From a phage, in assembly GCA_011967385.1 (NCBI GenBank), contig GCA_011967385.1_4516.2: a stretch of DNA of 23,062 bases, one strand, 5' to 3'. The notes under the pieces were generated by a model. That model was given only the letters and a program-made list of their open reading frames with translations, was not told the origin of the DNA and ran no database searches. Positions 11,730 to 17,925 of this stretch are shown in pieces. Both the position numbers and the translations under genes were made by a program. The first letter of the stretch is position 1. Each line of letters begins with the position of its first letter.

Positions 11730-11938
11730 AACCATTTGACCTGCATGCAATATTCTTCGACATGCTTTTTACGACCTTTCTTATCAATAAAGGTGTATTC
11801 CATAAAGCGTCCATGATAACGACGTTCAACATCGTGAGGGGTGTTAATAGGACACTTAGTCTGACGAATTTCTTCCCATTCACGAATAATAACTGCTTTA
11901 TTCTTTGGGTCATACGGGTGAGGATAATGCACATTCAT
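11726..11938 (-). CDS. Small hypothetical protein, 70 aa (tk.3 position)
   Basis: The track start at 11953 is TTG; the ATG at 11938 is in an ATGA overlap with the macro gene stop. Confidence 0.5.
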   Translation of the reverse strand: MNVHYPHPYDPKNKAVIIREWEEIRQTKCPINTPHDVERRYHGRFMEYTFIDKKGRKKHVEEYCMQVKWL

Positions 11939-12432
11939 AATAATGGTTCCCAATCAACAATCACAATTTCTAGTTTAGTGGAATATGTATCAAGAATTTC
12001 TTCGATAACGCCCCAGTTTCCACCACCGATACCTGCACCAATTCTTGGCATATAAATTACAGGCTTTGTTATCTTATTCTTTCCGAATTCATTTAATTCT
12101 ATTATACAATTCATTAAAGCAGAGTACTCAAAATTAGGTCCCGGCTCAAACTGTGTATAAAGATTAAAGCAATAAGCTTTATGGGTCTTAAAATATTTTT
12201 CATAAACTGAATAAGATCCGAGTTTAGACTCATCTCCATATACAGTTTGAAGTTTATCAGCTTCCAGAATTTTTGGATACGCCTTTGCTAATTGTCCTGC
12301 TACACCTGCGCCCATTGTATGAAAACAATTACACCCATGAGCAATATTGTTACCTTTAGAAAACAGGGCGACAATATCGCCCTTGATATAGTTTTTAATC
12401 ACTTGCTGCAAGTCCTCTAGTATAAGAGTCAA
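11935..12432 (-). CDS. Macro-domain (ADP-ribose binding/processing) protein (tk.4 position)
   Basis: KGDIVALFSKGNNIAHGCNCFHTMGAGVAGQLAKAYP and a later IGAGIGGG resemble macro-domain glycine-rich motifs. There is no ATG before residue 40, so the start is non-ATG: either TTG at 12432 (SD GGTGGA 8 nt upstream) or GTG at 12402. Confidence 0.65.
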   Translation of the reverse strand: MTLILEDLQQVIKNYIKGDIVALFSKGNNIAHGCNCFHTMGAGVAGQLAKAYPKILEADKLQTVYGDESKLGSYSVYEKYFKTHKAYCFNLYTQFEPGPNFEYSALMNCIIELNEFGKNKITKPVIYMPRIGAGIGGGNWGVIEEILDTYSTKLEIVIVDWEPLL

Positions 12433-12742: not shown

Positions 12743-13281
12743 TCTTTTACTTCCAGTAGTTTATTTGATTTAAGGTAATTAGCCTTTTCTAGGACTTCAG
12801 AAGCATATTTACTTCCAGCACTTGTCTTCCATCCCGCATTATATGAGGATATGGCTTTCCTTATATCCCCGTTATGTATATTTAACCAATAAGAAAATTC
12901 GATATAAGCCCATCTTGCTGAATTAGACCGCTTAGATAGCATTTTCTTAATTTGGGCATCAGTCATATTATAACCAAGCTGGTTAATTCTTGCCCTCATT
13001 GTTGGTAGATAGTTTTGGAACATTCCATACGCATGGTGACCTTTCTTATCTTTAAGATTAATACCGGCAGATGATTCTTGCCATAGTATTGCGGCCATTA
13101 TGTATCCAAGTCCTTTCTTATGCATATTTTCATGCGTTTTAAATTTTCCGTCCTTAGAAAACTGTTCCCCAAACTGATAAGCATAATTCAAGTTATCGAG
13201 TTGGACATTACTAAAAGTATGCTCGGAGCTATGTGCTGATAATGAAAGAGCAAATAGACCAGCGAGTAGTGCTTTTCTCAT
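12739..13281 (-). CDS. Lytic transglycosylase-like exported protein (vs.1 position)
   Basis: Signal peptide (MRKALLAGLFALSLSAHS), SLT-like catalytic region ILWQESSAG and AYGMFQ. SD AGAGG. Confidence 0.7.
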   Translation of the reverse strand: MRKALLAGLFALSLSAHSSEHTFSNVQLDNLNYAYQFGEQFSKDGKFKTHENMHKKGLGYIMAAILWQESSAGINLKDKKGHHAYGMFQNYLPTMRARINQLGYNMTDAQIKKMLSKRSNSARWAYIEFSYWLNIHNGDIRKAISSYNAGWKTSAGSKYASEVLEKANYLKSNKLLEVKE

Positions 13282-13289
13282 GTTTACCT

Positions 13290-13748
13290 CTAGATTTTAA
13301 TCACTGCTTTAGAAGCTTTTCCTGGTAGTCGTTTACTGTTAATAATAGCCATTCTACATTGAAGAGTCTTCATTTTGAATGCCGGATTTTCGCGACAAAC
13401 TGTAAGGCCTAGCCAAAGATTTCCATCAGTTATTTCTAAACGGCCTGGGCGGTATTCGACACCTTCGACAAAATCTTCATCAACATCTGGACGTGCCGGC
13501 ATTGATAAAAATTCTGCAACTTCTTTAACGTGATTTTTTACTTTACGAAATAATTCAAAAACGTAATTCTCATCTATTTCTCTCTGGATGGCACGATCTA
13601 AGAGATGTTGAGAATACTTGATATGAAAGCCTGGTAGTCCAAGAGACTTTGCAGCATCTTTTATACCGGCATTTATTTTGCGGAACTCCGTTTCAAAGAT
13701 TCGACGGAGTTTATTACGGCGGATAAAAACTTCCGAATTGATAGTCAT
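13290..13748 (-). CDS. regB: RegB sequence-specific endoribonuclease (cleaves GGAG in early mRNA)
   Basis: MTINSEVFIRRNKLRR...HIKYSQHLLDRAIQREIDE...RPGRLEITDGNLWLG...LQCRMAIINSKRLPGKASKAVIK closely matches T4 RegB as I recall it. Its own SD is AGAGGAGAA (contains GGAG). Confidence 0.9.
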   Translation of the reverse strand: MTINSEVFIRRNKLRRIFETEFRKINAGIKDAAKSLGLPGFHIKYSQHLLDRAIQREIDENYVFELFRKVKNHVKEVAEFLSMPARPDVDEDFVEGVEYRPGRLEITDGNLWLGLTVCRENPAFKMKTLQCRMAIINSKRLPGKASKAVIKI

Positions 13749-13776
13749 TTTGATTTCTCCTCTAGTTGACAGGTCT

Positions 13777-13805
13777 ATAGTAACACAACTAGAGGAGAAG
13801 TAAAC
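13777..13805 (-). promoter_or_regulatory. Sigma70-type early promoter (GTTTAC-N17-TACTAT)
   Basis: Upstream of regB. Confidence 0.5.
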
Positions 13806-13809
13806 TACT

Positions 13810-14025
13810 TTATTGATAAAATGGAGTTAAAGCCCAAGATTCTTTAGATACCATATCGGCGAAATGCCTCATCTCTTCGATTTGGCGACGACGCTGGTCA
13901 GCATAGTCTTCTTCGCCTTCTTCTTTACAATCTTCAAGGTCTTCTTCAAGATACTTTAAGTATTCACTACAAATTTTGTTGACCTTTTCCTGGAAGTCCA
14001 ATAACCCAGTAATAGTAGAAGCCAT
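13810..14025 (-). CDS. Small acidic hypothetical protein, 71 aa (vs.3 position)
   Basis: ATG at 14025 in a TAATG overlap with the upstream stop. Confidence 0.5.
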   Translation of the reverse strand: MASTITGLLDFQEKVNKICSEYLKYLEEDLEDCKEEGEEDYADQRRRQIEEMRHFADMVSKESWALTPFYQ

Positions 14026-14291
14026 TAGTATTTTTCCTCAGGTCGAAATACTGCACGACAGGCCCACATGCTGGCTTCTTTTAGATGTTGTTTAGCATAC
14101 TTAAGAGCCTGTACTGCATCCATATCTTCTTTGGTTTGTTGTTCTGTTTCATTTTCTTTCAAGATATATGCTTCTTCAATCAGAGCATCAAACATCAATC
14201 CAAGACGGACTTCTGCATCTTTAATAGCGTTCACTTTACCGATTTTATCGTCGGTATGCGGCTTGTAGCCTTTGATGTCTTCAATCGACAT
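14025..14291 (-). CDS. Small protein, 88 aa, at the vs.4 position (candidate Acb2-like anti-CBASS sponge; unverified)
   Basis: The track start at 14459 is TTG and would fully overlap the next gene. The ATG at 14291 has SD GAGGA and lies 7 nt after the upstream stop. The Acb2 call is by synteny only (fourth ORF past vs, as in T4). Confidence 0.45.
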   Translation of the reverse strand: MSIEDIKGYKPHTDDKIGKVNAIKDAEVRLGLMFDALIEEAYILKENETEQQTKEDMDAVQALKYAKQHLKEASMWACRAVFRPEEKY

Positions 14292-14505
14292 AAGGAATTT
14301 CCTCATCGGTGGCAAGGTCATATTCGACCAATTGGATAGGCTCATTAATACCATATCCGCGTACAGTGATATCAGTTGTCGGATAGTTTCCAGTAATATC
14401 ACCCATTCTAAATGCTTCAGTGAATGATTGCTCGCCTGAGCAACTAAACCAGGCGGCAAAACATTTTAAAACATCTTCAGACCCTTCTATAATCAATTTA
14501 GCCAT
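14281..14505 (-). CDS. Small acidic hypothetical protein, 74 aa (vs.5 position)
   Basis: ATG at 14505 in a TAATG overlap with the GrcA-like gene stop. Confidence 0.5.
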   Translation of the reverse strand: MAKLIIEGSEDVLKCFAAWFSCSGEQSFTEAFRMGDITGNYPTTDITVRGYGINEPIQLVEYDLATDEEIPYVD

Positions 14506-14867
14506 TATAGACTCTCAGTAAAGGTACGAGCGATAACGTCGCGCTGCTGTTCTGGAGTCAGAGAGTTAAAGCGAACTGCATAACCGGATACACGGATGGT
14601 CAGCTGCGGATATTTTTCCGGATGCTTAACTGCATCTTCCAGAGTTTCACGACGCAGAACGTTAACGTTCAGGTGTTGACCACCTTCAATTTTAACTTTA
14701 GGTTGATGTTCAATTTCAATTTCACGGGCATTCAAACCGTAGAAAATTTCTGGGTCTACAATAGCGTCTTCTTTAAAAGTCTTAGAGACAATAATCCGGG
14801 CTTGAGTACCGTCTTCAAAATAAATAGTGCCTTTATGTGCACCTTCAAGAATTTGATATGCTTTCAT
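14505..14867 (-). CDS. grcA-like: Autonomous glycyl-radical cofactor (GrcA/YfiD-like) spare-part protein
   Basis: The C-terminal ~60 aa ([60 protein letters not shown]) carry the glycyl-radical motif RVSGYAV and look essentially identical to E. coli GrcA as I recall it. The N-terminal half is divergent. This segment is visibly more GC-rich than its neighbours. Confidence 0.85.
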
Positions 14868-14873
14868 ATAACC

Positions 14874-15182
14874 TCAATTAGAAAATAAATTTATCCAAGT
14901 TTTTTCTTTAATCAAAAATGGGTCGGAATTAAACGCCATTAAACTTTGAGTGATTAATCCCTTAAATGGTCCATCAATAAATTCCATTTTGAAATGTGGA
15001 ATACTAGTCATCAGTCGTGCATTAGGAGCAGTACAAAGAACCTGCTGCCCTGCGAACGGACCTTTAGTCAAACGATATCGTTTAGGTTTAAAATGGTAAA
15101 TCTCGTAATTTTCTACAAGGGCCCTTTTATTGCATACTGGGCTGTTATAACAATATTCAAAAACTTCAATAGTGGTCATCAT
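14874..15182 (-). CDS. Hypothetical protein, 102 aa (vs.7 position)
   Basis: ATG at 15182 in an ATGA overlap with the upstream stop. Confidence 0.55.
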   Translation of the reverse strand: MMTTIEVFEYCYNSPVCNKRALVENYEIYHFKPKRYRLTKGPFAGQQVLCTAPNARLMTSIPHFKMEFIDGPFKGLITQSLMAFNSDPFLIKEKTWINLFSN

Positions 15183-15718
15183 TGCATTCCAATCACAAAA
15201 AATTGAGGACGAGCATTACCGCCGATGCAATATTTGCTTTTGCAACAGTGTTGGACTGTTTTAATATGGATGTCGTAAATCTTATCCATATCAGGAGCTT
15301 TAATAGGCTCGTCAATTATATACAGAATACGAGAAAGCGTTAATCCACGGAATTTATGTCCTTCATTGCCAATAAAACTACGGACAGAATCAGTAAATAA
15401 ACGGAATCGAATATCATCGCTAGAATAACGAGAAAATTCTTTTTTAATGTTGCCAACAGAAATTTTAGCATAAGCTGAAGTATTAGAAAGAACAATAACT
15501 GTTCCACCATCATACAGCCAATTAGCAGCAAAGTTAGTCACAGCAATTGATTTACCTGATTGTCGGCCGCCGTCTAAACGAAGTGTGCAGTATTCTTTGA
15601 GCAAGACTTCAAATGGTGGGGTATAACCGTTCTTACAAATTTCTTCTACTCTAGCATCAGAATGGTGTGTAAAAGCATTCATCAGGGATAGATAAGGTCC
15701 AGTTAAAAATGTTCTCAT
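15179..15718 (-). CDS. Small P-loop protein, 179 aa (vs.8 position)
   Basis: Walker-A-like GGRQSGKS and a Walker-B-like hydrophobic stretch ending IIDE. Weak SD. Lies below a GC-rich spacer. Confidence 0.6.
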   Translation of the reverse strand: MRTFLTGPYLSLMNAFTHHSDARVEEICKNGYTPPFEVLLKEYCTLRLDGGRQSGKSIAVTNFAANWLYDGGTVIVLSNTSAYAKISVGNIKKEFSRYSSDDIRFRLFTDSVRSFIGNEGHKFRGLTLSRILYIIDEPIKAPDMDKIYDIHIKTVQHCCKSKYCIGGNARPQFFVIGMQ

Positions 15719-15891
15719 TTAGTTTCTCTTAAGGTTGGGGCCATTCCGTGGCACATGTTAGGTCCTTCGACTCGCTATGTAAACCCATTACCGCGCTTGG
15801 GCTCGACCTTATTACAGGTTGGAAAAGGTACATCACTCAGAGGACTCGACGTTCATGAGGAGAGGTTGCGCTTCCCTTTATTAGGCAAGAA

Positions 15892-16221
15892 TTATACTCT
15901 AGGCTTTTGAGCTTGTTTGGTATTGGATTCCCACGCTGCTTTGGTAATTTTGTTAGCGGCATAGCCAAAGGCATTAGATAGAACACCTTTAGAGTTGAAT
16001 ACATCCAATCCAATAAGTACACCTGCTGCGTTAAATTTAGGAGCAAAGTACGCATTAGTTTTAGAAAGAGCTTTTTTCAATTCAGGGTCTTGAACCAAGC
16101 CATCAAAAACGCCTTTACCATTTACTTTATATGTTACTTTGGGATTTTTGCCTTCTTCGATAGCAGCTTTCTGTTCCGCAGATAATGTAACTTCAGTGAT
16201 AAACTCTTGATATGTTTTCAT
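15892..16221 (-). CDS. Internal-protein-like head protein with capsid targeting sequence (109 aa)
   Basis: N-terminus MKTYQEFITEV matches the T4 IP capsid-targeting consensus (MKTYQEFIAEA). SD AAGGA. Basic, Lys-rich body. Confidence 0.7.
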   Translation of the reverse strand: MKTYQEFITEVTLSAEQKAAIEEGKNPKVTYKVNGKGVFDGLVQDPELKKALSKTNAYFAPKFNAAGVLIGLDVFNSKGVLSNAFGYAANKITKAAWESNTKQAQKPRV

Positions 16222-16262
16222 ATGTTTCCTTTAAATGTAAATAGGCCTAAGTATAGGCCTTA

Positions 16263-16841
16263 TTAATTACCACGGGCTGCATTAGCAACGGCGTAAGCGT
16301 ACTGAACATTAGCGTCTTTAAACGTACCTTTAGAGGTATCTATTTCTGCCTTAAAGCCGCCTTTAGCCATAACATCGGCAAATTCTTTACGGAAAGCCAT
16401 TGCGTCAAGACCTTTCCATGATGATTTATGCTTGGCAAATTCAAGACCAGCGTAGTTGACAGCTTTAGCCAATTTATTATCAATGACCCATTTACCTGCT
16501 TTAGGCACAAACTTCGGGCCTTTTTGTTTAGAGAACAGTTTTAAATTCCAGCGACGAAGGTCACTGTCGGCTTTAACAAAAGCTGCGTCTAAGTTACTAG
16601 CAACAACATCTTCAATATGAGCAAATTTAAGACCATCAACTTCAATATTTAGATCGTTACGCCAGCGAAGTCCTTCCCAAGCGAAGGCTTTAAAGTCGGA
16701 AGCCTTTGTAGCTAAGTACCGTTCAATAGGAGCAGTTTTAGGGTCAAAGCCGTTTCCGCCACGATAATTCCACTCGTCCTTATTAATGCCTTGGACTTTT
16801 CCTGCAAAGGCCTCGGCGATAAATTCTTTATATGTTTTCAT
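16263..16841 (-). CDS. Internal-protein-like head protein with capsid targeting sequence (192 aa; IPIII-sized)
   Basis: N-terminus MKTYKEFIAEA. Length is close to T4 IPIII (~194 aa) but homology is unconfirmed. Own promoter at 16872-16901. Confidence 0.7.
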   Translation of the reverse strand: MKTYKEFIAEAFAGKVQGINKDEWNYRGGNGFDPKTAPIERYLATKASDFKAFAWEGLRWRNDLNIEVDGLKFAHIEDVVASNLDAAFVKADSDLRRWNLKLFSKQKGPKFVPKAGKWVIDNKLAKAVNYAGLEFAKHKSSWKGLDAMAFRKEFADVMAKGGFKAEIDTSKGTFKDANVQYAYAVANAARGN

Positions 16842-16904: not shown

Positions 16905-17165
16905 TTAAGCTTTACCGCCAGAAATAATTCCGAAGTTGTTAAAATCGTATCCAATATCATCAGCATCTACTTTAGGACTTGCTACAACATGAACAATTTC
17001 ACGACGTTTTGCATAGGTGTTGATTTCTTTACCATCGCCACCTAAGAAAGAATACCCATTACGTTTTAATGAGCCAAAGTCTTCGGCATCACCAACGAAA
17101 GCTTTAACTTTAAATTTGGGGTCTTTGGCATCTGCTTCAGTGATAAATTCTTGATACATTTTCAT
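16905..17165 (-). CDS. Internal-protein-like head protein with capsid targeting sequence (86 aa)
   Basis: N-terminus MKMYQEFITEA. Lies 6 nt downstream of the denV stop. Confidence 0.65.
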   Translation of the reverse strand: MKMYQEFITEADAKDPKFKVKAFVGDAEDFGSLKRNGYSFLGGDGKEINTYAKRREIVHVVASPKVDADDIGYDFNNFGIISGGKA

Positions 17166-17171
17166 TTTTCC

Positions 17172-17585
17172 TTAGTAAATTGATTTACCATAGTATTTGT
17201 ACCAAGTCGGACGTTGAGCAATTTTTTCATCTAAACGTGCTTGACTTATCGCAATGGACGCTTCGGACGGGACATAATTATTACGAAATTCTACAGGAAT
17301 GTCGGAAATATCCTGGACTGTCGTGTCCTTGATTTTGAAACCACGTTTCAAGCATTCAGTGATTAGCTCGATTTGACGTAAACGTAAAAATTCGAGTTTG
17401 TCGTAAAAGAATGTTACGTGACCCGTGCCTAAGATAAATGTTGGAGAGATTTTAAAATCCTTTACACGTTTACCATTTTGAACATGTTTACGGACTGCAC
17501 CAAATACGCGTGGTAATTCACGATACTCAGCCATAAGATGTTGGTCGGTCAGTTCAGAAACAAGTGTTAAATTGATACGAGTCAT
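17172..17585 (-). CDS. denV: Endonuclease V (pyrimidine-dimer DNA glycosylase/AP lyase)
   Basis: [35 protein letters not shown]...[19 protein letters not shown]...[11 protein letters not shown] is near-identical to T4 DenV as I recall it. The track start at 17597 is TTG; the ATG at 17585 has SD GGAGGA. Confidence 0.93.
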
Positions 17586-17612
17586 AATTTCCTCCAAGTA
17601 GTTGATAGATGT

Positions 17613-17643: not shown

Positions 17644-17925
17644 CTATTTTTCTGAAGCGCCTGAAATATATTTTTCAAGACGTTGTTTCATCAGCGAGCC
17701 GTTCTTAGCGATTTCTTCCGGTTTATCGCACATACGCAACAGTGCTTCAAGCTTAACGATATCGCTGGTACGTTCAAATTTGCGAGTATCTATCTTACTG
17801 GCAAGTTCAGAAATACGTGCTAATAGACTTTCAGCTTCGACCAAAGCTGCACCTAGCTTAGTTGCAAATGTGTCAGTGGCTTCGTTAAGAATAGATTCTG
17901 ATAAAAATTCACTATATGTTTTCAT
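17644..17925 (-). CDS. Internal-protein-like head protein with capsid targeting sequence (93 aa)
   Basis: N-terminus [10 protein letters not shown]. The track start at 17940 is TTG; the ATG at 17925 is in an ATGA overlap with the lysozyme stop. Confidence 0.7.

Follow-up and report, generated by a model that had tools for sequence, protein, structure and literature searches.

The closest described relative of the protein considered here is Vs.4 of phage T4, the anti-CBASS protein Acb2. The crystal structure and mutants of T4 Vs.4 show that Y8 and F82 stack on cGAMP, with polar contacts from Y8, H11, K23, and R79 (Jenson et al. 2023, PMC10097602). The hexamer interface is formed by L29, A66, A73, and A77, plus F33, mutation of which abolishes oligomerisation as well as binding, and cGAMP is bound with a Kd of about 30 nM (PMC10097602). 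In the Acb2 of the Pseudomonas phage PaMx33, the dinucleotide is contacted in the equivalent way by Y11 and K26, and two cyclic trinucleotides are bound via R67 and T74, with A70 and I71 (PMC10312549). The trinucleotide pocket of PaMx33 Acb2 is opened by a helix kink at E64 (E64-P65-G66). T4 Acb2, which carries D61 and T68 and lacks the kink, binds neither cA3 nor cAAG, and the residues proposed to clash with cA3 are Y37, A57, L60, D61, and T64. The D61R mutation alone did not rescue cA3 binding in T4 Acb2, since the limit is set by the geometry of the pocket rather than by any one residue. The Y8A and F82C mutations of T4 Acb2 abolish Panoptes activation, and F82C is a Panoptes-escape, loss-of-binding allele; in the acb2 allele of T2, the dinucleotide site is thought to be lost. 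Some Acb2 homologues bind 3'cADPR rather than CBASS signals, and membership in the Acb2 family alone therefore leaves the ligand unfixed.

The window analysed in this study is a 23,062-nucleotide stretch of phage DNA with approximately 97% DNA identity to RB69-type T-even phages of the genus Mosigvirus. Of the full-window matches, the best is phiC120, which covers 96% of the window at 96.7% identity. On the minus strand, an ORF that runs from an ATG at position 14291 to a TAA at positions 14027-14025 encodes a product of 88 aa (Table 1), and the 88-aa sequence quoted in the original prediction is exactly the translation of this ORF. The ORF is very probably the Mosigvirus (RB69-type) orthologue of T4 vs.4, encoding the anti-CBASS protein Acb2, and it is referred to below as acb2.

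In the mechanical ORF list, the acb2 frame was lengthened to a TTG at position 14459, giving 144 aa. This longer reading was ruled out, as it overlaps vs.5 and the upstream extension is absent in the homologues; moreover, all of the homologues and the RB69 annotation begin with MSIEDIKGY, which supports the start of the 88-aa product. The acb2 start and the TGA stop of the upstream vs.5 homologue overlap by 11 nt, whereas the two genes are separated by a gap of 36 nt in T4. At the other end, the TAA of acb2 and the start of the downstream vs.3 homologue have one base in common (TAATG), and the vs.4/vs.3 junction of T4 is alike. This joining of the vs.3 start to the acb2 stop suggests that the vs.3 homologue is translationally coupled with acb2. 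In the region from 13200 to 16300, a scan for generic sigma-70 promoters returned 8 sites against 8.6 expected, and 7 terminator-like sites were found against a shuffled expectation of 2.1.

Table 1. Positions of acb2, its segments, and the neighbouring genes in the window
Feature	Position	Strand	Description
regB	13290-13748		
vs.3 homologue	13810-14025	-	71 aa, acidic; 40% identity to T4 Vs.3 over 65 aa, E 3.6e-12
acb2 / vs.4 CDS	14025..14291	-	88 codons + TAA stop; homology, Pfam, PHROG, PDB, AF2 hairpin
Conserved C-terminal block, codons 66-88	14028..14096	-	A66, A73, S74, A77, R79, F82; Q68 at the position of PaMx33 T74
Hypervariable middle, codons 33-65	14097..14195	-	End of helix 1, hairpin tip, first half of helix 2
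Conserved N-terminal block, codons 3-32	14196..14285	-	Carries Y9, H12, T13, K24, L30 (T4 Y8, H11, T12, K23, L29)
Putative Shine-Dalgarno GAGG	14301..14304	-	9 nt upstream of the acb2 ATG, within the 3' end of the vs.5 homologue; proposed from sequence
vs.5 homologue	14281-14505	-	74 aa (T4: 58 aa); 78% to T4 over the first 18 aa only
vs.6 homologue			93% identity to T4
vs.7 homologue			63% identity to T4
vs.8 homologue			179 aa; 88% identity to T4
Internal-protein-like ORFs between vs.8 and denV	15892-16221, 16263-16841, 16905-17165	-	MKTYQEFI-type N-terminus
denV	17172-17597		
Internal-protein-like ORF between denV and e	17644-17925	-	MK(T/M)Y(Q/K/S)EF(I/L) N-terminus

The acb2 product is 100% identical in amino acid sequence to RB69 Vs.4 (AAP76020.1; UniProt Q7Y526) and 65.5% identical to T4 Vs.4/Acb2 over 87 aa (E 2.7e-37). 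In a phmmer search of all PDB sequences, a single entry was matched, namely 7UQ2, "Vs.4" (E 1.4e-30). The product matches the Pfam family PF24729 (Acb2_Tad1_hairpin; Acb2/Tad1 hairpin domain) with 65.1 bits (E 6.5e-18), the cut-off of this family being 27 bits. It also matches PHROG 717 (E 7e-28), the group by which Vs.4 homologues were defined by Jenson et al. (PMC10097602). A database search gave 142 homologues; all 120 among the matches listed carry PF24729, and the homologues among these 120 are Vs.4-like proteins of 81 to 98 aa.

The family profile and the conservation counts given below are based on 61 homologues. Searched against the PDB, this profile matched 7UQ2 with an E value of 8.9e-41 and, over the full length, PaMx33 Acb2 (8H2J, 8IXZ, and related entries) with an E value of 4e-5; in the latter alignment, Y11 and K26 of PaMx33 correspond to Y9 and K24 of the RB69-type protein. 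No Tad1 chain was among the PDB matches of the profile (E <= 10), and membership in Tad1, the anti-Thoeris gcADPR sponge, was rejected, no homology past the common hairpin having been found. NCBIfam models gave no match to the acb2 product or its neighbours. The original prediction had read this ORF as an Acb2-type sponge and had considered the possibilities that Acb2 similarity might be absent or might fall on a neighbouring ORF instead. The similarity is strong and lies on acb2 itself; the ORFs at 13810-14025 and 14281-14505 have no Acb2 homology and no Pfam match, and belong to PHROGs 2037 and 1986, respectively. The identity to T4 Vs.4, the matches to 7UQ2 and PF24729, and the retention of the contact and interface residues described below all bear out the reading as an Acb2-type sponge.

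The AF2 monomer predicted with the homologue alignment (pLDDT 86.4, pTM 0.70) takes the shape of a hairpin of two long antiparallel helices (residues 14 to 42 and 50 to 81), in line with the earlier description of the product as a helical protein. In a Foldseek search against the PDB, an E value of 0.001 or lower was reached only by the three chains of 7UQ2 (TM 0.70). PaMx33 Acb2 appeared lower in the list, with a probability of 0.93 to 0.96, amid generic helical hairpins. The AF2 model and the Foldseek matches thus agree with the two-helix protomer of approximately 90 aa that is expected of Acb2.

The similarity to T4 Vs.4 is unevenly distributed along the chain. Residues 2 to 32 and 66 to 88 have 90% and 87% amino acid identity to T4, respectively, whereas residues 33 to 65 have 27% amino acid and 43% nucleotide identity. 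Among the 61 homologues, the column entropy of the middle segment is mostly 2 to 3.7 bits, and its length ranges from 26 to 43 residues. The near-frozen ends are the parts of the protein from which the dinucleotide pocket and the interface are formed, and relaxed constraint on the hairpin tip is the simplest reading of the variability of the middle. The pattern of divergence lends no support to a role of the middle in specificity. Y9, H12, T13, K24, L30, F34, A66, A73, S74, A77, R79, and F82 of the RB69-type protein are identical to their T4 equivalents. Y9, H12, K24, A66, S74, R79, and F82 are invariant in all 61 homologues, and A73 and A77 are nearly so. The complete set of residues of a cyclic-dinucleotide pocket (Y9, H12, K24, S74, R79, and F82) is therefore present, as is that of the hexamer interface (L30, F34, A66, A73, and A77). 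The interface positions are conserved in 59 to 61 of the 61 homologues, with the exception of position 34, where F, L, or I occurs. At the DNA level, acb2 differs from RB69 vs.4 at five nucleotides, and all five differences are synonymous, which indicates purifying selection on acb2 within the RB69 lineage.

The second pocket is a different case. The residues of the RB69-type protein at the positions of R67, A70, I71, and T74 of PaMx33 Acb2 are Q61, K64, Y65, and Q68, as derived from the profile alignment to 8H2J and codon-level mapping. Helix 2 contains no proline or glycine and is predicted by AF2 to be unbroken from residue 50 to 81. The arginine and threonine and the kinked helix 2 of a trinucleotide pocket of the PaMx33/JBD67 type are thus all missing from the RB69-type protein. 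Residues 33 to 65 contain nine acidic and three basic side chains, with a net charge of about -6. On the basis of Q61 and Q68, the kink-free helix 2, and the acidic middle, the protein is predicted to have a dinucleotide-only spectrum; cyclic trinucleotides are probably not among its ligands, as is the case for T4 Acb2. This prediction is weaker than that for dinucleotides, since all five of the T4 residues proposed to clash with cA3 are changed in the RB69-type protein (to I38, M57, V60, Q61, and K64). Furthermore, as residues 33 to 65 are only 27% identical to those of T4, affinity and ligand spectrum could differ from those of the T4 protein.

This divergence is the starting point of one alternative, in which the ligand spectrum of this Acb2 has been broadened or shifted and the middle segment (Q61, K64, Y65, and Q68, contributed by three protomers and facing the three-fold axis) forms a functional second pocket or a specificity tuner, for example for cyclic trinucleotides, for another signal, or for tuning away from the decoy nucleotides of Panoptes. 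The positions lining the pocket are hypervariable in the T-even homologues, and the residues found here are rare or unique among the 61 homologues (Q61 in 2, K64 in 2, and Y65 in 1). Lysine, tyrosine, and glutamine are typical nucleotide-contacting side chains, which also counts in favour of this alternative, as do the replacement of every T4 clash residue and the known variation of ligand spectra among Acb2 homologues. However, the equivalents of R67 and T74 are both absent, D61R alone failed to restore cA3 binding in T4, no helix kink is predicted, and the segment carries the net negative charge given above; the variability also fits simple relaxed constraint on a solvent-exposed hairpin tip. 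Evasion of Panoptes via the dinucleotide pocket is not expected, because that pocket is identical to that of T4. We therefore regard a functional second pocket or specificity tuner as improbable, and there is only a small chance that the middle of the RB69 lineage reshapes the second pocket or the hexamer geometry so as to give a ligand spectrum unlike that of T4 Acb2. If this were true, the protein might capture a cyclic trinucleotide or another signal, or have an altered affinity for the Panoptes decoy 2',3'-c-di-AMP, and the hypervariable middle of T-even Acb2 would be an arms-race specificity module.

A protein of this family could also have been turned against Thoeris as a 3'cADPR sponge like Acb2_43, without anti-CBASS activity. 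Type I Thoeris is inhibited by ten Acb2 homologues, one of which does not inhibit CBASS, but Acb2_43 binds its ligand via extra terminal beta strands together with a different set of residues (T4, H5, L6, V7, K19, and K55), whereas the RB69-type protein keeps the full cGAMP contact set of T4 and is 65.5% identical to a protein that binds cGAMP with a Kd of about 30 nM; an exclusively anti-Thoeris role is thus very unlikely. Still less credible is an ORF that arose by chance or a remnant that has lost its activity, as has been proposed for the T2 allele, in which the match to the acb2 product begins only at residue 10. Although Panoptes selects loss-of-function acb2 alleles, the present ORF is of full length with its start and Shine-Dalgarno sequence intact, all of the functional residues are present, the differences from RB69 are solely synonymous, and the identical protein is found on 63 contigs. 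A chance ORF is excluded by the E value of the match to a solved structure, together with the synonymous nature of the five RB69 differences.

With the product taken as an RB69-type Acb2, the following mechanism is proposed. By homology with T4 Vs.4 and PaMx33 Acb2, six copies of the 88-aa two-helix hairpin would assemble into a hexamer in which paired protomers enclose three pockets between their N- and C-terminal ends. One cyclic dinucleotide (3',3'-cGAMP and related) would be trapped in each, the product of the CBASS CD-NTase, with Y9 and F82 stacking on the ligand and H12, K24, S74, and R79 giving polar or salt-bridge contacts. Sequestration of the signal would keep CBASS effectors such as CapV inactive, and the phage would escape abortive infection. 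Because the dinucleotide pocket is unchanged from T4, 2',3'-c-di-AMP should also be bound, and exposure to Panoptes-type guard systems is expected. For RB69-type Acb2, the analysis itself shows the homology, the fold, the retained residues, the synteny, and the purifying selection, from which we infer that the protein forms a hexamer, binds the ligand, and counteracts CBASS. The phage probably withstands CBASS of the cGAMP type and is probably sensitive to guard systems of the Panoptes type. A literature search for tests of RB69-type Acb2, or for a link between RB69 or Mosigvirus and Acb2, found none.

Each ORF between regB and denV was compared with the T4 and RB69 proteins. The regB gene is followed by vs.3-like, vs.4, vs.5, vs.6, vs.7, and vs.8 genes, which is the order of T4, gene for gene. 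The original prediction had counted exactly six small ORFs between regB and denV, matching vs.3 to vs.8; the order holds, but the window has nine ORFs in this interval, three of them being additional internal-protein-like ORFs, and the count of six is true of T4 itself. The vs.3 homologue is N-terminally shorter than T4 Vs.3 and is listed as the orphan ORF117c in the RB69 annotation, in which the homology is unrecognised. Comparison of the sequences indicates that the C-terminal part of the vs.5 homologue is replaced or frame-shifted relative to T4.

Upstream of vs.8 lies a slightly GC-richer apparent intergenic gap of approximately 170 nt on the minus strand (15719-15891). A structured RNA at this position was considered and rejected, as there was no Rfam match and no tRNA, and the fold z-score was +1.87. 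The gap is 84.6% identical in nucleotide sequence to the 5' part of T4 vs.8 over 182 nt, and residues 6-20, 23-40, and 38-63 of T4 Vs.8 are matched in three different frames. Because the Vs.8 similarity is split over three frames, vs.8 of this lineage has lost approximately its first 40 codons to frameshifts and restarts at the equivalent of M41 of T4. The same stretch is present in RB69 at 95.6% identity, and the annotated RB69 vs.8 begins 12 codons further in.

Four ORFs of the window have the N-terminus MK(T/M)Y(Q/K/S)EF(I/L), which is common to the T4 internal proteins IPII and IPIII and is the capsid-targeting sequence. In T4, ipII and ipIII are located between denV and e, whereas in the window one such ORF lies in that interval and the other three lie between vs.8 and denV. 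The ORF at 16263-16841 is 92% identical to T4 IPIII, and at this place RB69 has an unrelated 90-aa ORF, ORF124c. The internal-protein locus looks like a region of shuffled cassettes. The stretch that separates the ipIII-like gene from the internal-protein-like ORF next to it contains, at 16243-16260 on both strands, a perfect GC-containing hairpin of 7 bp (AGGCCTA-TACT-TAGGCCT); with its T-rich tail on the minus strand, this hairpin is a candidate terminator. Approximately 1.6 kb from acb2, the tk.4 homologue (11935-12432, minus strand) has a Macro (ADP-ribose-binding/hydrolase) domain (PF01661, 26.3 bits against a cut-off of 22) and falls into PHROG 335, "phosphatase".

RB69-type Acb2 is already known, both in kind and in sequence. 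The exact protein has been deposited as RB69 Vs.4 and is encoded on 63 contigs, and near-identical cluster-mates in Mosigvirus bear the name "Acb2/Tad1 hairpin domain-containing protein". In the GenBank and RefSeq phage records listed, including the RefSeq record of the closest relative phiC120, the gene bears no functional name and is called only "hypothetical protein", "Phage protein", or "Vs.4/Vs.5 hypothetical protein". The value of the present assignment is accordingly one of annotation, in that naming the gene acb2 informs users of RB69-type (Mosigvirus) phages, including candidates for therapy and biocontrol, of the probable CBASS resistance and Panoptes sensitivity of the phage. It brings no new sponge biology unless the divergent middle proves to alter ligand specificity.

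Compared with known systems, the RB69-type protein is most like T4 Vs.4/Acb2 (7UQ2; Jenson et al. 2023, PMC10097602), with which it has in common the slot between vs.3 and vs.5, the length of 88 aa, and the two-helix hairpin. The cGAMP-contact and hexamer-interface residues of the two proteins are all identical, and the end blocks are 87 to 90% identical. They differ in that the RB69-type protein is longer by one residue at the N-terminus and shorter by one in the middle, and in that D61, T64, I65, and T68 of T4 are replaced by Q61, K64, Y65, and Q68, respectively. RB69 Vs.4 is identical in protein sequence and was deposited under the name "Vs.4 conserved hypothetical protein", with no function. 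The Acb2 of Pseudomonas phage PaMx33 (8H2J, 8H2X, and 8IXZ-8IY2; PMC10312549) resembles the RB69-type protein in family, fold, and the tyrosine and lysine contacts to the dinucleotide; however, it is distant (profile E value of 4e-5 and about 15% identity in structural alignment) and has R67 and T74 with a kink, in place of Q61 and Q68 without one. Tad1 has in common the hairpin domain that gives PF24729 its name, whereas the RB69-type protein has nothing beyond the hairpin, and all of its closest relatives are of the Vs.4 type.
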